Shown here: in pieces, positions 55,445-61,291 of the stretch | How the letters are laid out: the number at the start of each line of letters is the position of its first letter | Numbering within the stretch: position 1 is the first letter of the stretch | Assembly (NCBI GenBank): GCA_017935245.1 | Contig: JAGBHZ010000004.1 | Coordinates: 1,305-65,304 of the forward strand | Direction: 5' to 3' | Source: Alphaproteobacteria bacterium | GTDB lineage: Bacteria; Pseudomonadota; Alphaproteobacteria; Rs-D84 | DNA length: 64,000 bases | Notes under the pieces: generated by a model | Databases searched by the model: none | Seen by the model: the letters and a program-made list of their open reading frames with translations, nothing else | What the model was told of the DNA's origin: nothing | Made by a program: the position numbers and the translations under genes

Positions 55445-55493
55445 AATTATCCCCCTATCTTTTTGTTAAACAAAAAACCGCCACATCAAAAAG

Positions 55494-55562
55494 GCGGTTG
55501 GAGGTTAACAACTATTAACAGTAATAGCGTCGCTTATTGGATATTCACGACCCTCCAACCAT
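55494..55562 (-). ncRNA. C4/CI-like antisense RNA (element 1)
   Basis: Basal stem GGTTGGAGG/CCTCCAACC encloses two hairpins; exposed CTGTTAA and GTTGTTAA are complementary to upstream TTAACAG and TTAACAAC. Confidence 0.65.
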
Positions 55563-55625
55563 GGTTGGAGTTTTTTTCTGTTAAGAGGTTGTTAAGCCCC
55601 GCACTGGTTTCCCAATGCATATCGT

Positions 55626-55654
55626 ATTATATCGAATAAAAACATCAGATTCAA
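55626..55654 (-). promoter_or_regulatory. sigma70-like promoter of element 1 / XRE gene
   Basis: TTGAAT-17-TATAAT on the - strand. Confidence 0.75.
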
Positions 55655-55690: not shown

Positions 55691-55737
55691 TTAGTTAAGT
55701 ATTTTGTCATCCCCGCGTTCGGCGACGGGATTTTTTT
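55691..55737. repeat. Remnant of the dispersed palindromic repeat family
   Basis: TGTCATCCCCGCG (55705-55717) is the reverse complement of 58882-58894; TTAGTTAAGTATTTT is shared with 3163-3177. Confidence 0.55.
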
Positions 55738-57325
55738 AAACAAATTTTTCGGGAACCAGACTGCAAATCGATTTCCATACACGACGGAATATTGATGTGT
55801 CCGGCGCATGCGTGTGAACCTGGGGTTTTTTATCGCCGGGGCGACTGCCGGTCCAGATGGGGTCGTCGTCTTCGTCCAGGGTTACACGCCACGATGTTTG
55901 AGTATCTTTTAAAATCATCGCACGCAGTTTTTCTGCAAAATCCGCACTTTCAAAAATTGCCACGTTTTCTGTGTTATAATATGCACTGCGTGGGTCCAGA
56001 TTAAAACTGCCAATCCATGAAATTTTATCGTCAAAAACCATCGTCTTGCTGTGCAGGACCGAAAAACTGGATTGTTTTCGTTCACGATCATGTTCTTTAC
56101 CGCGCAGATTTTCCGCAGACACCATAAATTCATAAACATCGGCGCCGGATTTAATCAACTGTTCCCGGTATTTTTCCCATTTCGCATACACCGTTGGCGC
56201 ATTTGTTGACGCCAATGAATTTGTAACAATGGTCATGTGCACACCAGATTTTTCTTCGTGCAACATGTGTTCCAAACCGCCCTGGCCCGGGACAAAATAC
56301 GCCGCCGACATGTACACAGATTCATCCGTTTTATTCCACAGATGTTGCAGAGCCCGAATAATATCACCACGATAGGCTTCTTTTTCAGCCATGGTCATTT
56401 CAACCTTTTGCGGTGGATCGGCCAAGAATTTTCCGCGACCCCAACTGAAATCAAATTGCTTGGTCTGGTATTCGCGCTGGGCCATTGCAATAATATTATT
56501 ATATTGCTTTATGCCGATGGCACTTTTTTCTGCGATTTTTTCAAATTCACGTTCCAGTTTCTTTAAACCGCGCTTTGTCTTGGCACGCGGAAACGCCGAT
56601 GCCGGTATCGACAGGTGATGATTCCAGTATTCATCAAAACTTTTTGTTGCATGCTTGGTCATTTCGCCGATAAACAAAACGTCTGTATCAGAAAAGTTTG
56701 ACGCGGTTTCTGGATAGAAATAATTACTGCCCACATTGCGGCCACCGGTAATATACGCAACATTATCAACAATAAATAATTTGTTATGCATGCGCGAATT
56801 CAGACGATTAAAATCCATCATAAATTGTGGGTAATATAACAACTTGCTGCGGGTTTTTACGGTGTTAAAAACCTTAACCTCTATATTAGGATGCTGGTTC
56901 AGCAACATCACATCAACAATATCAGATTTTGTTCCATAATCATCCAATAATATTCGCACCTTGACCCCGCGGTCGGCCGCGTTTTTCAGTTCACCAATCA
57001 ATACCTTGGACGAAAAATCGTTACTGTAAATATACGTCTGTAAATCAATCGTTTTGGTCGCCATGCGCGCAAATGCCGAACGAATAACAAACGCGGACAA
57101 CCCATCTTCGATTAATGTCGCGCCCGAAACATTGGTGTTGGTGGCCAATTCCGTGGCATAACATTGCGCAATTGGGGTTTCATATGGATTGTAATCAAAA
57201 TCACTTTGTGTGATTTTTGCCGTGTACGTTTCCAACCTTTTGTCGCGCGTTGTGGTTGGCACAGTTACACACCCAACCAATGGCAAACATAGCATCATCA
57301 TAGAAACTTTCTTAACAATCGTCAA
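55736..57325 (-). CDS. Phospholipase D family protein (ClsC/YmdC-like cardiolipin synthase)
   Basis: Two HKD motifs (MHNKLFIVD, LHSKTMVFD), GGRN, GSFNLDPRS; lipobox-like LVGC; start codon uncertain. Confidence 0.88.
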   Translation of the reverse strand: MTIVKKVSMMMLCLPLVGCVTVPTTTRDKRLETYTAKITQSDFDYNPYETPIAQCYATELATNTNVSGATLIEDGLSAFVIRSAFARMATKTIDLQTYIYSNDFSSKVLIGELKNAADRGVKVRILLDDYGTKSDIVDVMLLNQHPNIEVKVFNTVKTRSKLLYYPQFMMDFNRLNSRMHNKLFIVDNVAYITGGRNVGSNYFYPETASNFSDTDVLFIGEMTKHATKSFDEYWNHHLSIPASAFPRAKTKRGLKKLEREFEKIAEKSAIGIKQYNNIIAMAQREYQTKQFDFSWGRGKFLADPPQKVEMTMAEKEAYRGDIIRALQHLWNKTDESVYMSAAYFVPGQGGLEHMLHEEKSGVHMTIVTNSLASTNAPTVYAKWEKYREQLIKSGADVYEFMVSAENLRGKEHDRERKQSSFSVLHSKTMVFDDKISWIGSFNLDPRSAYYNTENVAIFESADFAEKLRAMILKDTQTSWRVTLDEDDDPIWTGSRPGDKKPQVHTHAPDTSIFRRVWKSICSLVPEKFV

Positions 57326-57436
57326 TTTTACTACCCCGTCTGGATTGACAGTATAATACAAAAACAAATTATATTACAAGCAAAATTCATTATATTTTTT
57401 AACGAATTGTGAATTTTGTCTTGTCTGTGATTTTAA

Positions 57437-58616: not shown

Positions 58617-58745
58617 TTATTACGCACGTGATGTGCGTATCTGGGCCAAAATTAAATGTGTGTCACCACAGTTTCCGGCTACCGGAAGGAAGGGAGCCAC
58701 CGTCGGTCAAGCAATTGCCGACGGTGATTTTTTATGGACATAAAA

Positions 58746-58945
58746 ATAAATAAAAGTTTAGTGGGGTAAGTCCTAGCAAAAATTTTGTCATTACCGCGCA
58801 GGCGGTAATAGGGCTTTTTAAACCACGCACACCGTGCGCCAAATAAATGTGTTTAGTTTTTATAGACCCTGTCCCCGCCGTCGCGGGGATGACAATTTTT
58901 TTGTCAGAAAATTGTAAAAAAATACCCCACCAAACTTTTATTTAT
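58746..58945. mobile_element. MITE-like element with 23 bp terminal inverted repeats and internal RPE/REP-like palindromes
   Basis: ATAAATAAAAGTTTAGTGGGGTA (58746-58768) vs TACCCCACCAAACTTTTATTTAT (58923-58945), 1 mismatch; internal TGTCATTACCGCGCAGGCGGTAAT and TCCCCGCCGTCGCGGGGATGACA; no ORF. Confidence 0.65.
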
Positions 58946-58953
58946 CTTAGCAT

Positions 58954-58982
58954 TTGCCTAATTTAAAATATTTGGTTATAAT
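58954..58982 (+). promoter_or_regulatory. sigma70-like promoter of element 2 / Cys-rich genes
   Basis: TTGCCT-17-TATAAT. Confidence 0.7.
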
Positions 58983-59106
58983 ATGTCTGTTATGGTGATT
59001 TTACCATAATGGGGTGTAGAAACCCGACTTGTGCATTAAAAGATGACGCAGTGCTAAATTGCCGACGCGTCATGCTTTGATGAAAAAAACTCCTGAGCAT
59101 ATTGGC

Positions 59107-59171
59107 GTCAGGAGGGCTGCGAATATATTGAATAAGCACACAATTCACAAGATTGTTTCTAACCTCCTGGC
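59107..59171 (+). ncRNA. C4/CI-like antisense RNA (element 2)
   Basis: Basal stem GTCAGGAGG/CCTCCTGGC; exposed CACAAG and GTTTCTA are complementary to upstream CTTGTG and TAGAAAC. Confidence 0.65.
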
Positions 59172-59236
59172 CACTCGAATTTATTCGGTGGTTTTTGTTT
59201 TTTCGCGAATAAAACAAAAGAAAGGGAGTGATACAA

Positions 59237-59680
59237 ATGAAAAAACTTTTAACCTTAACCGCGGTTGGCGCACTGCTGGCCGCACCCGCATCGGCGGTAC
59301 AAAAGTGTGTGGCATTGGACAGCAGCACGACAACATGTACAAATATAGAAGCGGAAGCTCCATACAGGGGGTGGAAATTAACATGCACCACCAATGGTAT
59401 CACGGTACCAATTGAGGGAACAAGCTCTTGTTCTAAGACCGCGGCGTTAACCCTTAACACCATAAAGGACGATTTAAAAATAAAATATAGTGAAAATGAT
59501 AGCAGTGAAGTATACTGCTGGTGCCAAATGATTCGTCCATTGGCATCATCTTGGGTGCTTGCACATCGTACCTTTGGTATGAATGTAAACTGCACAACTG
59601 GATGCGCAGAGAAGTGTGCAGAAACCTTTTCAGGAAACGCCGACTTTCGGTCTGCGATGATCTCGACCCTGTCTGACTAA
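59237..59680 (+). CDS. Cys-rich secreted protein
   Basis: Signal peptide MKKLLTLTAVGALLAAPASA; CWCQM..P..S.WV...C...CA..CA...FR C-terminal pattern. Confidence 0.75.
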   Translation: MKKLLTLTAVGALLAAPASAVQKCVALDSSTTTCTNIEAEAPYRGWKLTCTTNGITVPIEGTSSCSKTAALTLNTIKDDLKIKYSENDSSEVYCWCQMIRPLASSWVLAHRTFGMNVNCTTGCAEKCAETFSGNADFRSAMISTLSD

Positions 59681-59693
59681 TAAGGAAGCACGA

Positions 59694-60200
59694 ATGAAAC
59701 GAATAATAATTTTATTAGCCTGCGTGCCAATAAGTGCAACAGCGGCTGATTTGGTTGCCGATGGTGAACTGTGCCTAAGTAGTCCGCAATGCGCATCAGG
59801 TGTGTGTCTGCGTAAAGACGCTACGTCACTGGCACGATGCGCGCCAAAGGCACAGCAGGGCGAAGCCTGTTCTTTTGTCGATACGTTGACTGGCGTATAT
59901 TACAATCCACCTTGTGAAACAGGACTAGCTTGTAAGGCAGACGCATCTGCAACAACAGGTAATTTTGGTGTCTGTGGAAAAATCGAACTTTTAGAGGAGT
60001 GTCCCACAGGGCATATATCGATTGATGCGCCGTACATAACCATCGCGACATCGTGCCCCAGTGGCACAACCGCCATTGGCACGGCGGAGTCGTGTTTGGC
60101 AACACTAAATGGTAATTGCATAATGTATGCCCCGGCGGGCGTGTCATTTACCGACGATGCCGGCACGTACGAATTTACCGCATCATGTGCATTAGAATAA
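59694..60200 (+). CDS. Cys-rich secreted protein
   Basis: Signal peptide; dense Cys array (GELC...QCASGVC...C...GEAC...C..GLAC); C-terminal FTDDAGTYEFTASC. Confidence 0.75.
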   Translation: MKRIIILLACVPISATAADLVADGELCLSSPQCASGVCLRKDATSLARCAPKAQQGEACSFVDTLTGVYYNPPCETGLACKADASATTGNFGVCGKIELLEECPTGHISIDAPYITIATSCPSGTTAIGTAESCLATLNGNCIMYAPAGVSFTDDAGTYEFTASCALE

Positions 60201-60229
60201 AAAATCCCGCGGAATGCGGGATTTTTTTA
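60199..60229. terminator. Bidirectional intrinsic terminator
   Basis: AAAAAATCCCGC-GGAAT-GCGGGATTTTTT between convergent genes; similar hairpins at 33183-33208, 35679-35704, 39219-39246, 42736-42767, 46120-46147 and 55191-55225. Confidence 0.8.
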
Positions 60230-61291
60230 TTATTCTTGCTTTAATGCGGCACGTATTGATTCAACCGATTTTGCACGTTCGGCAATCAGGCCGTTTAAAT
60301 TCGCGTGTATCAAATCCGATGCGTATTTCAGTGAATTGGCAAATGCCAATGCATCACTATTACCATGGGTTTTGACCGCAAACCCTTTTAGCCCCAGGAA
60401 CACCGCACCCGCATACGAACGCGGATCAATTTTATGCTTTAACCGTTTGAATACATGCACCAAGAAAAACGCCCCAATCATTGCCAGGATGGATTTCTTG
60501 AAGTTTTCAACGATAACGCGCTTAATCAATTTTGCGGTACCTTCGACCGTTTTTAATACGATGTTGCCGGTGAATCCGTCGGTAACAACAACCTGAACAC
60601 GGCCGGCACTGATATCATTGGCCTCTACAAAACCGATGTATTCATATGGTAATTCATCTTTGTGTTCGGTCAGAACGTGATTCAAGTGCACCAGGGTTTC
60701 ATTACCCTTGGTTTCTTCGGAACCGATGTTTAATACCCCCAGTTTTGGTTTTGGCATTTTTCCCATAACTTCGGCGTAAACACTGCCCAAAACGGCAAAG
60801 TCGAACAAAATAGTTTCATCACACTGAACATTTGCACCCAAATCCAGTACAACCACACGATCGTCCCCCGCCCCCGATGGCAGCATCGTTGTAATTGCCG
60901 GGCGCGCAATGCCATCTACGGTTTTTAACGCCAATTTAGACAATGACATTAAAACACCGGTGTTACCCGCACTGACGATGGCGGCGGCGTTACCTTCGCG
61001 GACATCTTTGATTGCCATATACATAGACGTATCCTGGGCATGACGGACAATATCCATGATTTTGTCCGTACCCTTTACCACGCCGGGGGCATGTACAACC
61101 TCTACATTTCGACCGACACGCGGATATTTAGTCAACATACGGCGCAGACGCTTTTCATCACCAAACAGACGGAATTGAACCCGGTCTTCGCCATTTTGAT
61201 ACAAAAATTGGTTAATGCCCCCCAGGACAACGGATGGACCTTTGTCCCCACTCATGGCATCAACGGCTATGATTTTCTTTTCTTCTGACAT
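60230..61291 (-). CDS. plsX: Phosphate acyltransferase PlsX
   Basis: IAVDAMSGD.GP, SAGNTG, RPAI, LDLGAN, LNIGSEE.KG, DGFTGN..LK..EG, K.HG.SD; start MSEEKK. Confidence 0.95.
   Translation of the reverse strand: MSEEKKIIAVDAMSGDKGPSVVLGGINQFLYQNGEDRVQFRLFGDEKRLRRMLTKYPRVGRNVEVVHAPGVVKGTDKIMDIVRHAQDTSMYMAIKDVREGNAAAIVSAGNTGVLMSLSKLALKTVDGIARPAITTMLPSGAGDDRVVVLDLGANVQCDETILFDFAVLGSVYAEVMGKMPKPKLGVLNIGSEETKGNETLVHLNHVLTEHKDELPYEYIGFVEANDISAGRVQVVVTDGFTGNIVLKTVEGTAKLIKRVIVENFKKSILAMIGAFFLVHVFKRLKHKIDPRSYAGAVFLGLKGFAVKTHGNSDALAFANSLKYASDLIHANLNGLIAERAKSVESIRAALKQE

Follow-up and report, generated by a model that had tools for sequence, protein, structure and literature searches.

A putative self-addressed, two-state RNA leader family with C4-like anatomy upstream of exported-protein operons in 'Candidatus Enterousia'

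The stretch of DNA analyzed here (the window) consists of 64,000 nucleotides (nt) of contig JAGBHZ010000004.1 from assembly GCA_017935245.1, a 902-kb metagenome-assembled genome (MAG) of 'Candidatus Enterousia' that comprises 18 contigs and is 92.5% complete; the genes next to its PlsX gene identify it as such. According to PMC12306168, 'Candidatus Enterousia' is a member of the uncultured, genome-reduced order Rs-D84. Near the end of the window, Element 2 (58954-59236, plus strand) runs from a promoter to the start codon of the first of two genes for exported, cysteine-rich proteins. Our preferred reading, in which we place about even confidence, is that Element 2 is a self-addressed, two-state leader riboregulator belonging to a lineage-specific family of 5' leaders of ~150 to 260 nt. 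The family, which is apparently undescribed, probably tunes the expression of exported proteins.

An earlier reading of this DNA, made from the sequence alone, had interpreted Element 2 as a leader resembling the C4 antisense RNAs of phages. Inspection of 58700-60500 base by base recovered every motif that it named. Of its interpretation, the architecture, the existence of sister leaders and the conservation are supported. Detectable membership in the Rfam C4 family, the second pair of target boxes (a2/b2) by which a C4 RNA acts as a repressor, and conditional expression through a terminator are not. It had also missed a third pairing partner (CCUCCUGA), the hairpin that presents box a1 and the fact that the element exists in many copies. 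In window coordinates, the leader is made up as follows.

58932-58946, plus strand: A/T-rich motif AAACTTTTATTTATC, just 5' of the -35 box; most typical copies have it, as judged by eye
58954-58982, plus strand: sigma-70-type promoter, TTGCCT (58954-58959), 17-nt spacer and TATAAT (58977-58982); 10 of 12 matches in a promoter scan
58989-59010, plus strand: hairpin H1, predicted to form at the transcript's 5' end or close to it
59011-59026, plus strand: a1 hairpin, stem GGGG/CCC(G) with box a1 TAGAAAC (59017-59023) as its loop, predicted for the isolated 5' domain
59028-59033, plus strand: box b1 CTTGTG, single-stranded, 3' of the a1 hairpin
59034-59082, plus strand: variable spacer hairpin, in which ATGACGC (59043-59049) pairs with GCGTCAT (59067-59073)
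59083-59096, plus strand: A-rich linker of seven A's (59083-59089) followed by segment (1), CUCCUGA (59090-59096), anti-Shine-Dalgarno-like
59107-59116, plus strand: GTCAGGAGGG, confirmed base by base
59108-59115, plus strand: segment (2), UCAGGAGG, Shine-Dalgarno-like, a partner of segment (1) or segment (3)
59118-59138, plus strand: hairpin P2 with the conserved loop GAAUAUAUUGAAUAA, 95% paired
59140-59156, plus strand: hairpin P3, stem ACAAU/AUUGU, with box b' CACAAG (59146-59151) as its loop
59155-59161, plus strand: box a' GUUUCUA, single-stranded, in the joint that links P3 to the 3' half of stem P1
59163-59170, plus strand: segment (3), CCUCCUGG, the 3' strand of stem P1, anti-Shine-Dalgarno-like
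59171-59196, plus strand: weak intrinsic terminator, CCACUCGAA/UUCGGUGG with a bulged U, then five U's; -7.3 kcal/mol
59224-59239, plus strand: Shine-Dalgarno sequence GGGAG (59224-59228) and the ATG of gene 1 (59237)

Promoter, leader and intrinsic terminator thus precede gene 1 in the layout of an attenuator. An internal promoter after 59196 would have told against the sequence-only reading, and a scan of the plus strand from the terminator to the ATG returned no promoter-like site. The 256-nt leader folds at -77 kcal/mol compared to a mean of -57.9 kcal/mol after shuffling (z = -4.47), and none of 200 shuffled sequences is as stable. The distance from TATAAT to the first hairpin is the same in all 12 typical copies of the leader in this genome, and the motif AAACTTTTATTTATC may serve as an UP element or as an operator.

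A DNA search of the assembly returned many copies of the leader at 72 to 87% identity, in agreement with the earlier prediction that other genes for cysteine-rich proteins would carry the same leader with new letters in the a and b boxes. In all 12 parsed copies, a1 is the exact reverse complement of a', and b1 contains the complement of b'; these copies use seven different a boxes, and their b boxes repeat only once. An alignment of 14 paralogous copies from this genome shows 96% pairing in the a helix, where 5 of 11 pairs have changes on both sides; the same holds for 6 of the 7 pairs of the b helix, despite misaligned gaps. In these copies, pairing in hairpin H1 reaches 94.6%, and both sides have changed in 4 of its 8 pairs. 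The covariation score of the a and b helices (0.326) exceeds that of shuffled controls (0.157; 0 of 500 reach it), and controls with the boxes slid out of register score far lower. Because the copies are paralogs, the shuffle control overstates significance, but the slid control and the tests that follow do not depend on it.

These tests used a wider set of 72 distinct copies, drawn from this genome and from genomes of the genus and of other families (more than 30 genomes). An exact complement of the 7-nt box a' occurs within 320 nt upstream in 59 of the 72, and these represent 33 different a boxes. A helix of at least 6 bp between the 16 nt after a1 and the copy's own P3-loop region forms in 53 of these 59 cognate combinations but in only 10.5% of 3,422 non-cognate ones. 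The mean duplex energy is likewise stronger for cognate than for non-cognate combinations (-16.8 versus -11.7 kcal/mol, n = 49).

Divergence of the boxes is saturated regardless of how similar the surrounding scaffolds are. Outside the boxes, the 3' domains of the paralogs at C11:45643 and C17:38460 are identical even in their variable loops; within the boxes, all six letters of b' and three letters of a' differ. Two copies in the closely related genomes G092 and G111 match the C17 copy in both the 3' domain and the boxes and are probably its orthologs. In the near-complete relative G110, all 27 parsed copies have different combinations of a and b, and those that share an a box differ in b. 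This pattern is compatible with selection for operon-specific pairing, and also with a scaffold that evolves in concert while distant partners hold the boxes in place.

A second line of evidence comes from segments (1), (2) and (3), that is, CUCCUGA, UCAGGAGG and CCUCCUGA, which covary as a triple across the 72 copies. The most common triplets are TGA/TCA/TGA (29 copies), AAC/GTT/AAC (10 copies) and TAC/GTA/TAT (3 copies), with AGY/GCT/AGC and TGY/GCA/TGC as further variants, and more strongly altered triples, such as UUCCUAC/GUAGGAAG/CUUCCUAU, are present in other families. Segments (1) and (3) compete for segment (2), which has room for only one of them at a time, so both pairings appear to be maintained. 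The stem (2):(3) is 97 to 100% paired (100% in 30 distinct sequences), and the isolated 3' domain folds into P1, P2 and P3. Pairing of CTCCTGA with a downstream partner, another proposal of the sequence-only reading, appears in the minimum-free-energy fold as (1):(2).

The local hairpins that present the boxes are preserved as well. The stem of the a1 hairpin varies in a compensated manner, as GGGG/CCCG and, in other genera, GAGG/CCTC, AAGG/CCTT, AGGG/CCCT and AAAG/CTTT; that of P3 is either ACAAU/AUUGU or CUAUA/UAUAG. Contact between the two halves of the leader is therefore of the loop-against-strand type twice over, with the a1 loop facing the linear a' and the linear b1 facing the b' loop. 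Pairs of antisense RNA and target commonly make contact in this way, with a loop against a single strand.

Folding of the whole leader favors the form in which the boxes are paired (the docked form), at -71.2 kcal/mol compared to -60.4 kcal/mol with a1 and b1 blocked, such that docking is worth ~10.8 kcal/mol. In a partition-function model of 12 read-through mRNAs from this genome, pairing of the Shine-Dalgarno sequence of the first gene with segments (1) and (3) rises from a mean of 0.22 when docking is allowed to between 0.64 and 0.72 if either pair of boxes is prevented from pairing. In the same thermodynamic model, blocking the boxes lowers the share of the Shine-Dalgarno sequence that is unpaired from 0.38 to 0.20. 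This modelling suggests that the docked form is translatable and that the undocked form is masked.

Taken together, these features point to the following scheme. Each leader has a consensus promoter of its own and consists of two modules. The target module displays a1 in the loop of a small hairpin, next to an unpaired b1. The second module, antisense and C4-like, is a three-way junction that (2):(3) closes; its P3 loop presents b', and its a' is unpaired. A private, copy-specific pair of complementary boxes connects the modules. The undocked state contains the local hairpins and the stem (2):(3), and the docked state contains a1:a', b1:b' and (1):(2) in their place. Since segments (1) and (3) are anti-Shine-Dalgarno-like and segment (2) is Shine-Dalgarno-like, the state of the leader would set whether an anti-Shine-Dalgarno segment covers the ribosome-binding site of gene 1. 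In Enterousia, the weak terminator would yield two products, a short leader RNA and the read-through mRNA. The former, whole or as a processed C4-like piece, could then pair in trans with the a1 and b1 boxes of its own operon, producing operon-specific feedback resembling that of the Salmonella RNA IsrK. The sequences show the family, the anatomy of its promoters and terminators, the pairings, the alternative folds and the location before genes for exported proteins; the translational output, the action in trans and the input signal are inferred. In its boldest version, the scheme is an RNA addressing system: each of the 20 to 39 operons for variable exported proteins would have a private two-box code, present in both the target and the antisense module of its leader, and the short or processed C4-like RNA of an operon would reach no transcripts in trans other than those of the operon itself. 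This version is a tentative proposal that we consider unlikely.

The family is widespread within the order. A covariance model built from the 3' domain of 14 leader copies of this genome (R1) yields 21 matches in the genome at E ≤ 1e-4, two of which are halves of a single copy split between contigs, leaving 20 distinct copies; a weaker 21st copy lies at C1:7446. Screening of 121 genomes of the order (E ≤ 1e-3) detected R1 matches in 101, including 80 of the 81 in the genus, with fewer in other genera and families, and G110 contains 39 copies at E ≤ 1e-6. These matches and the paired stems across relatives bear out the conservation of structure that had been anticipated from the window. The split copy spans two contig ends (C11:77400-77540 and C6:16807-16947) that overlap by 141 identical bases, all inside the leader; because assemblies break at leader repeats, copy numbers in fragmented MAGs are likely underestimates. 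Spacer-hairpin inserts vary among copies in both length and sequence, and two copies have an extra hairpin inserted into the P2 loop.

Three contigs of the viral collection IMG/VR also carry a leader copy (L188, 12089-12196; L189, 8508-8612; L190, 837-944), which may be either phage-borne or located in host flanks. On L188, genes for tail sheath, tape measure, tail and head-closure proteins lie within a few kilobases of the leader, and the two signal-peptide proteins that follow it have no match in PHROG. The L189 leader lacks a U-tract and is followed by an ABC-transporter-like protein.

At loci L146, L148, L153 and L163 of genomes G050 and G059, a related tandem module sits immediately 3' of the leader terminator. 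It is composed, in order, of GGTTGGAG, a P2-like hairpin, GGCCGCCCACAATCGGCTC and CCTCCAACC, and whereas the leader boxes vary, the loop of this module is nearly constant among three loci of G059.

The genes that follow the leaders have a common character. In 13 of 14 loci of this genome, the first open reading frame (ORF) begins 25 to 40 nt past the terminator, and its product has 5 to 15 cysteines and an N-terminus that resembles a signal peptide (by eye, no predictor being applied); a second signal-like, cysteine-bearing gene often follows. Of the further copies in the genome, three are followed by exported proteins of this kind and two by no clear ORF; small XRE-type helix-turn-helix (HTH) genes follow three copies in all. 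Inspection of 30 loci in G110 gave a similar distribution, with ~20 exported proteins (cysteine-rich ones plus two outer-membrane-like), 7 small HTH proteins and 3 unclear cases. The window itself contains a second copy, Element 1, and the features around the two elements are as follows.

55474-55654, minus strand: Element 1, a compact second leader copy without a spacer hairpin; R1 match at 55474-55570, 60.4 bits
55444-55214, minus strand: XRE-type HTH gene of 76 amino acids behind Element 1; its Pfam HTH matches fall below the curated cutoffs
55736-57367, minus strand: PLD-like gene adjoining Element 1
59237-59680, plus strand: gene 1, 147 amino acids, signal-peptide-like N-terminus, 9 cysteines; orphan family
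59694-60200, plus strand: gene 2, 168 amino acids, signal-like N-terminus, 14 cysteines; colipase-like domain
60199-60227, plus strand: operon-end terminator, from a scan

The boxes of Element 1 are CTTAACAAC/GTTGTTAA and TTAACAG/CTGTTAA, and a shorter motif related to AAACTTTTATTTATC, TTTATTTATC, lies upstream of it. Paralogs of its HTH gene follow two other copies in this genome and ~7 in G110. The adjoining PLD-like gene is 77 to 91% identical in 80 relatives (loci L191-L270), only 4 of which have any leader within 1.2 kb of it. When the DNA of the window operon was compared with 150 genomes of the genus, only four others matched, and these only over the C-terminal module of gene 2. With a leader at 4 of 80 PLD loci and no full-length match to the operon, the cassettes turn over rapidly and are not syntenic.

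Gene 1 belongs to a family of proteins of ~145 amino acids that is confined to MAGs of this lineage and has conserved AVQKCVAL and CWC motifs and a C-terminal LSD or LSN. Its 69 relatives are mostly nameless, and the named ones are all hypothetical proteins from Alphaproteobacteria MAGs. The protein has no Pfam match; its AlphaFold model (5 strands and 2 helices, mean pLDDT of 78.5) has no fold match in the PDB by Foldseek, with a best E value of 0.22. In gene 2, residues 22 to 97 are colipase-like: both Pfam colipase halves score above their cutoffs, and the match to porcine colipase has an E value of 1e-16 with ~50% of aligned residues identical by our own count, accompanied by weaker matches to Dickkopf proteins. 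This domain is fused to a C-terminal module of ~90 amino acids that is common to paralogs, and a search of 5.8 billion proteins found only three other clusters with the colipase-like domain. On sequence similarity, the colipase-like domain is a candidate for transfer from host to bacterium or for host mimicry.

Several observations weigh against the switching and addressing that we propose. The terminators of the family are weak (mean of about -7.4 kcal/mol, bulged, with U runs of 4 to 6), and their stem has 6 of 8 pairs changed on both sides in relatives, but it forms with a mean probability of 1.00 when docking is allowed and 0.96 when a1 and b1 are blocked (12 copies). As the terminator forms in both states, no link between docking and termination is visible, and modelling of the 12 copies for an antiterminator found none, with no alternative pairing overlapping the terminator stem. 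Moreover, a U-tract terminator is missing from four of the five G064 copies shown (genus g3) and from one viral-collection copy; in the terminator-less copies, the Shine-Dalgarno sequence comes directly after segment (3) or after a plain hairpin. The conserved function is hence probably independent of termination, and the conditional expression that the sequence-only reading derived from the terminator is not supported. The accessibility result is the product of a thermodynamic model and relies in part on an extension of the a helix by GGGG:CUCC in Enterousia. Hand-pairing discarded this extension as a conserved feature, as it is not kept in the G064 copies. Covariation between the flank of the Shine-Dalgarno sequence and segments (1) and (3) is anecdotal, with GUAGGGAG in G064 and nothing consistent in the AAC-type copies of this genome. 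The uniqueness of box combinations is statistically unremarkable: by a hand estimate, ~0.2 coincident pairs are expected by chance in G110, so that uniqueness alone proves nothing. Finally, the terminated short RNA carries both modules and would dock on itself, closing it to pairing in trans unless it is processed.

Part of this evidence is what would be expected of a static leader, in which the a and b boxes are long-range closing helices of a compact 5' untranslated region that neither switches nor acts in trans. Such a leader would stabilize the mRNA (for example, against RNase E) or fix the level of termination or translation, and the diversity of its boxes would reflect neutral compensatory drift among old paralogs. 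We regard this as possible, if on balance unlikely. At minimum free energy, the complete leader takes the docked form, H1 is conserved at the 5' terminus, RNase E/G is encoded in the genome (C13:18289-19113), and neither the constant terminator nor the chance-level uniqueness of the boxes speaks for switching. A single fold, however, does not require (1), (2) and (3) to covary as a triple, nor does it explain why helices that exist only in the undocked state (the stem (2):(3), P3 and the a1-hairpin stem) are maintained, or why the boxes are saturated with changes even where the rest of the 3' domain is identical down to its unconstrained loops. The two-state architecture could alternatively serve a riboswitch-like attenuator, in which a common ligand or protein binds conserved unpaired letters, such as the P2 loop GAAUAUAUUGAAUAA, and shifts the balance between (1):(2) and (2):(3) in all leaders, co-regulating a regulon of exported proteins while docking provides only scaffolding. 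The high conservation of the P2 loop, which pairing does not explain, and the dozens of operons under one type of leader fit this idea, but copy-specific boxes have no place in it and there is no antiterminator to compete with the terminator. Searches of Rfam 15, with the window at gathering thresholds and the 14 copies at E ≤ 10, returned chance-level matches only and no C4 or riboswitch family in the leaders, and no candidate ligand or binding protein was identified; we therefore consider a riboswitch-like attenuator improbable.

A further alternative is the classical C4 mechanism, in which a processed antisense RNA represses through a2 and b2 at the ribosome-binding site as in immI of phage P1. 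Topology and order of elements are those of the P1 c4 region, RNase P RNA is present in the genome (C14:16207-16541), and three copies of this genome and ~7 of 30 in G110 precede small XRE-type HTH genes. The target at the ribosome-binding site is nevertheless absent. An exact two-box scan of the genome finds only the a1 and b1 of each copy itself. A relaxed scan with the boxes of the window copy (one mismatch per box, spacer of up to 40 nt) is uninformative, with 353 matches compared to 310 to 1,001 with shuffled boxes. Duplexes with the 120 nt downstream are no stronger for cognate than for non-cognate combinations (-10.0 versus -10.1 kcal/mol, n = 49), and the region between terminator and ATG is nearly identical among copies with different boxes. 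Nor are the leaders detectable members of the Rfam C4 family. The C4 model (RF01695) has no match at E ≤ 10 in this genome, with 98 candidates scored, or on the window copy and 13 other copies; conversely, R1 has no match in P1 c4, its best score (8 bits) lying elsewhere in the region. Because a2 and b2 are absent, the classical mechanism is already contradicted, and its probability is very small. Still closer to negligible is the notion that the leader is a non-functional repeat or mobile element that merely appears structured. It is multi-copy, one assembly break lies inside a copy, and the cassettes are non-syntenic, with a leader beside the PLD gene in so few relatives; yet each copy examined in this genome has promoter-like -10 and -35 boxes, ~19 of ~21 copies have a Shine-Dalgarno-preceded start 24 to 40 nt past the terminator (two lack a credible ORF), several helices show compensatory covariation, and the regions inspected showed neither a transposase nor terminal repeats.

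The self-addressed, two-state reading, if correct, would mean that the C4 design, an antisense RNA beside its own a1 and b1 boxes, is not confined to phage immunity and that an order of uncultured, genome-reduced gut bacteria has adopted it as a standard 5' leader for exported proteins. Judged from sequence, what appears to be new is the recruitment of a C4-type architecture as the self-targeting leader of exported-protein operons. In G110, 39 copies of ~230 nt would occupy ~0.9% of a genome of ~1 Mb. With its orthogonal box pairs on an unchanging scaffold, the family amounts to a natural library for studying specificity in RNA-RNA recognition, and it offers a handle on the regulation of a fast-evolving secretome, including a vertebrate-like colipase domain, in organisms with few obvious regulators. 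Were the addressing also to hold, a separate feedback loop or bistable switch would control each operon after transcription. Surface and secreted proteins could then be expressed heterogeneously or to the exclusion of one another in a gut symbiont without detectable Hfq (no Hfq match was found in this genome, at 92.5% completeness), providing an RNA-only counterpart to the control of antigenic variation. Rfam 15 does not contain the family. A search of the literature on Enterousia and on alphaproteobacterial C4 antisense leaders found no description of the family, supplementary files with possible motif lists lying outside that search; for the c4-a1b1 motif it returned only Weinberg et al. 2010 (PMC2864571). 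The words "RNA" and "cysteine" do not occur in the main text of PMC12306168.

Among known systems, the closest in anatomy is the C4 RNA of phages P1 and P7. The P1 immI record is annotated with a promoter, a1, b1, the 77-nt C4 RNA, a2 and b2, and then icd. In its fold, a 17-bp terminal stem encloses a small hairpin and a second hairpin, whose loop, by comparison with the annotated sites, contains the complement of b1 and is followed by a single-stranded complement of a1. The fold of 59105-59176 is a three-way junction of the same kind, in which the stem (2):(3) encloses P2 and P3; the P3 loop displays b', and a' occupies the unpaired joint next to it. The complementary a1 and b1 boxes lie upstream on the same transcript, and the order of promoter, a1, b1, spacer hairpin and RNA is shared. 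In both systems, boxes differ among relatives while their targets change to match. Since the 3' domain folds like P1 C4, the C4 analogy drawn by the sequence-only reading is anatomically right. The Enterousia leaders are probably very distant relatives of C4 RNAs. The closing stem, however, is 8 to 9 bp here compared to 17 in P1 C4; segment (1) is an extra competitor, and an intrinsic terminator comes directly after the RNA. The leaders are also chromosomal, at 20 to 39 copies per genome, and precede genes for exported proteins, whereas the P1 element precedes icd and ant. The context of a phage-immunity antirepressor is thus not that of the leaders, which stand before exported cysteine-rich proteins and, in a minority of cases, XRE-type HTH proteins.

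PMC5320573 reports that a C4 RNA of ~77 nt is released by an RNase P cut at the 5' end of the terminal stem and that a few changed letters set the specificity of P1 and P7 C4. A 3' CCA was considered as an RNase P signal in the leaders and rejected, as CC[A/G] merely begins the terminator stem and varies. PMC5320573 also describes in Acinetobacter baumannii the Group 1 C4-like small RNAs, a large C4-type set in one genome, as in Enterousia, and hence a precedent for expansion. As presented there, the A. baumannii RNAs match the Rfam C4 motif, which the Enterousia leaders do not, and are small RNAs with possible targets in trans rather than gene leaders that carry their own target.

With attenuators of the trp type, the leaders share a promoter-proximal position, an intrinsic terminator before the genes and mutually exclusive, consecutive pairings. 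They differ in that the alternative pairings spare the terminator stem and that most of the G064 copies shown have no terminator; in addition, no conserved leader peptide was seen on inspection of the ORFs of the leader and its copies.

In mode of action, the proposed scheme comes nearest to IsrK of the Salmonella Gifsy-1 prophage, for which PMC4825925 describes one promoter that gives both a short terminated RNA and a read-through mRNA. The read-through mRNA adopts two alternative structures, one of them translationally inactive, and the short RNA acts in trans (PMC4825925). An Rfam match to isrK at locus L017 (2239-2305, E = 0.2), 2 kb from a leader, is probably due to chance. IsrK, as covered there, is a single, experimentally tested locus and an activator of translation, whereas the Enterousia leaders are multi-copy and known from sequence and models. 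By analogy, the anatomy of the window leader would allow an IsrK-like action on its own read-through mRNA.

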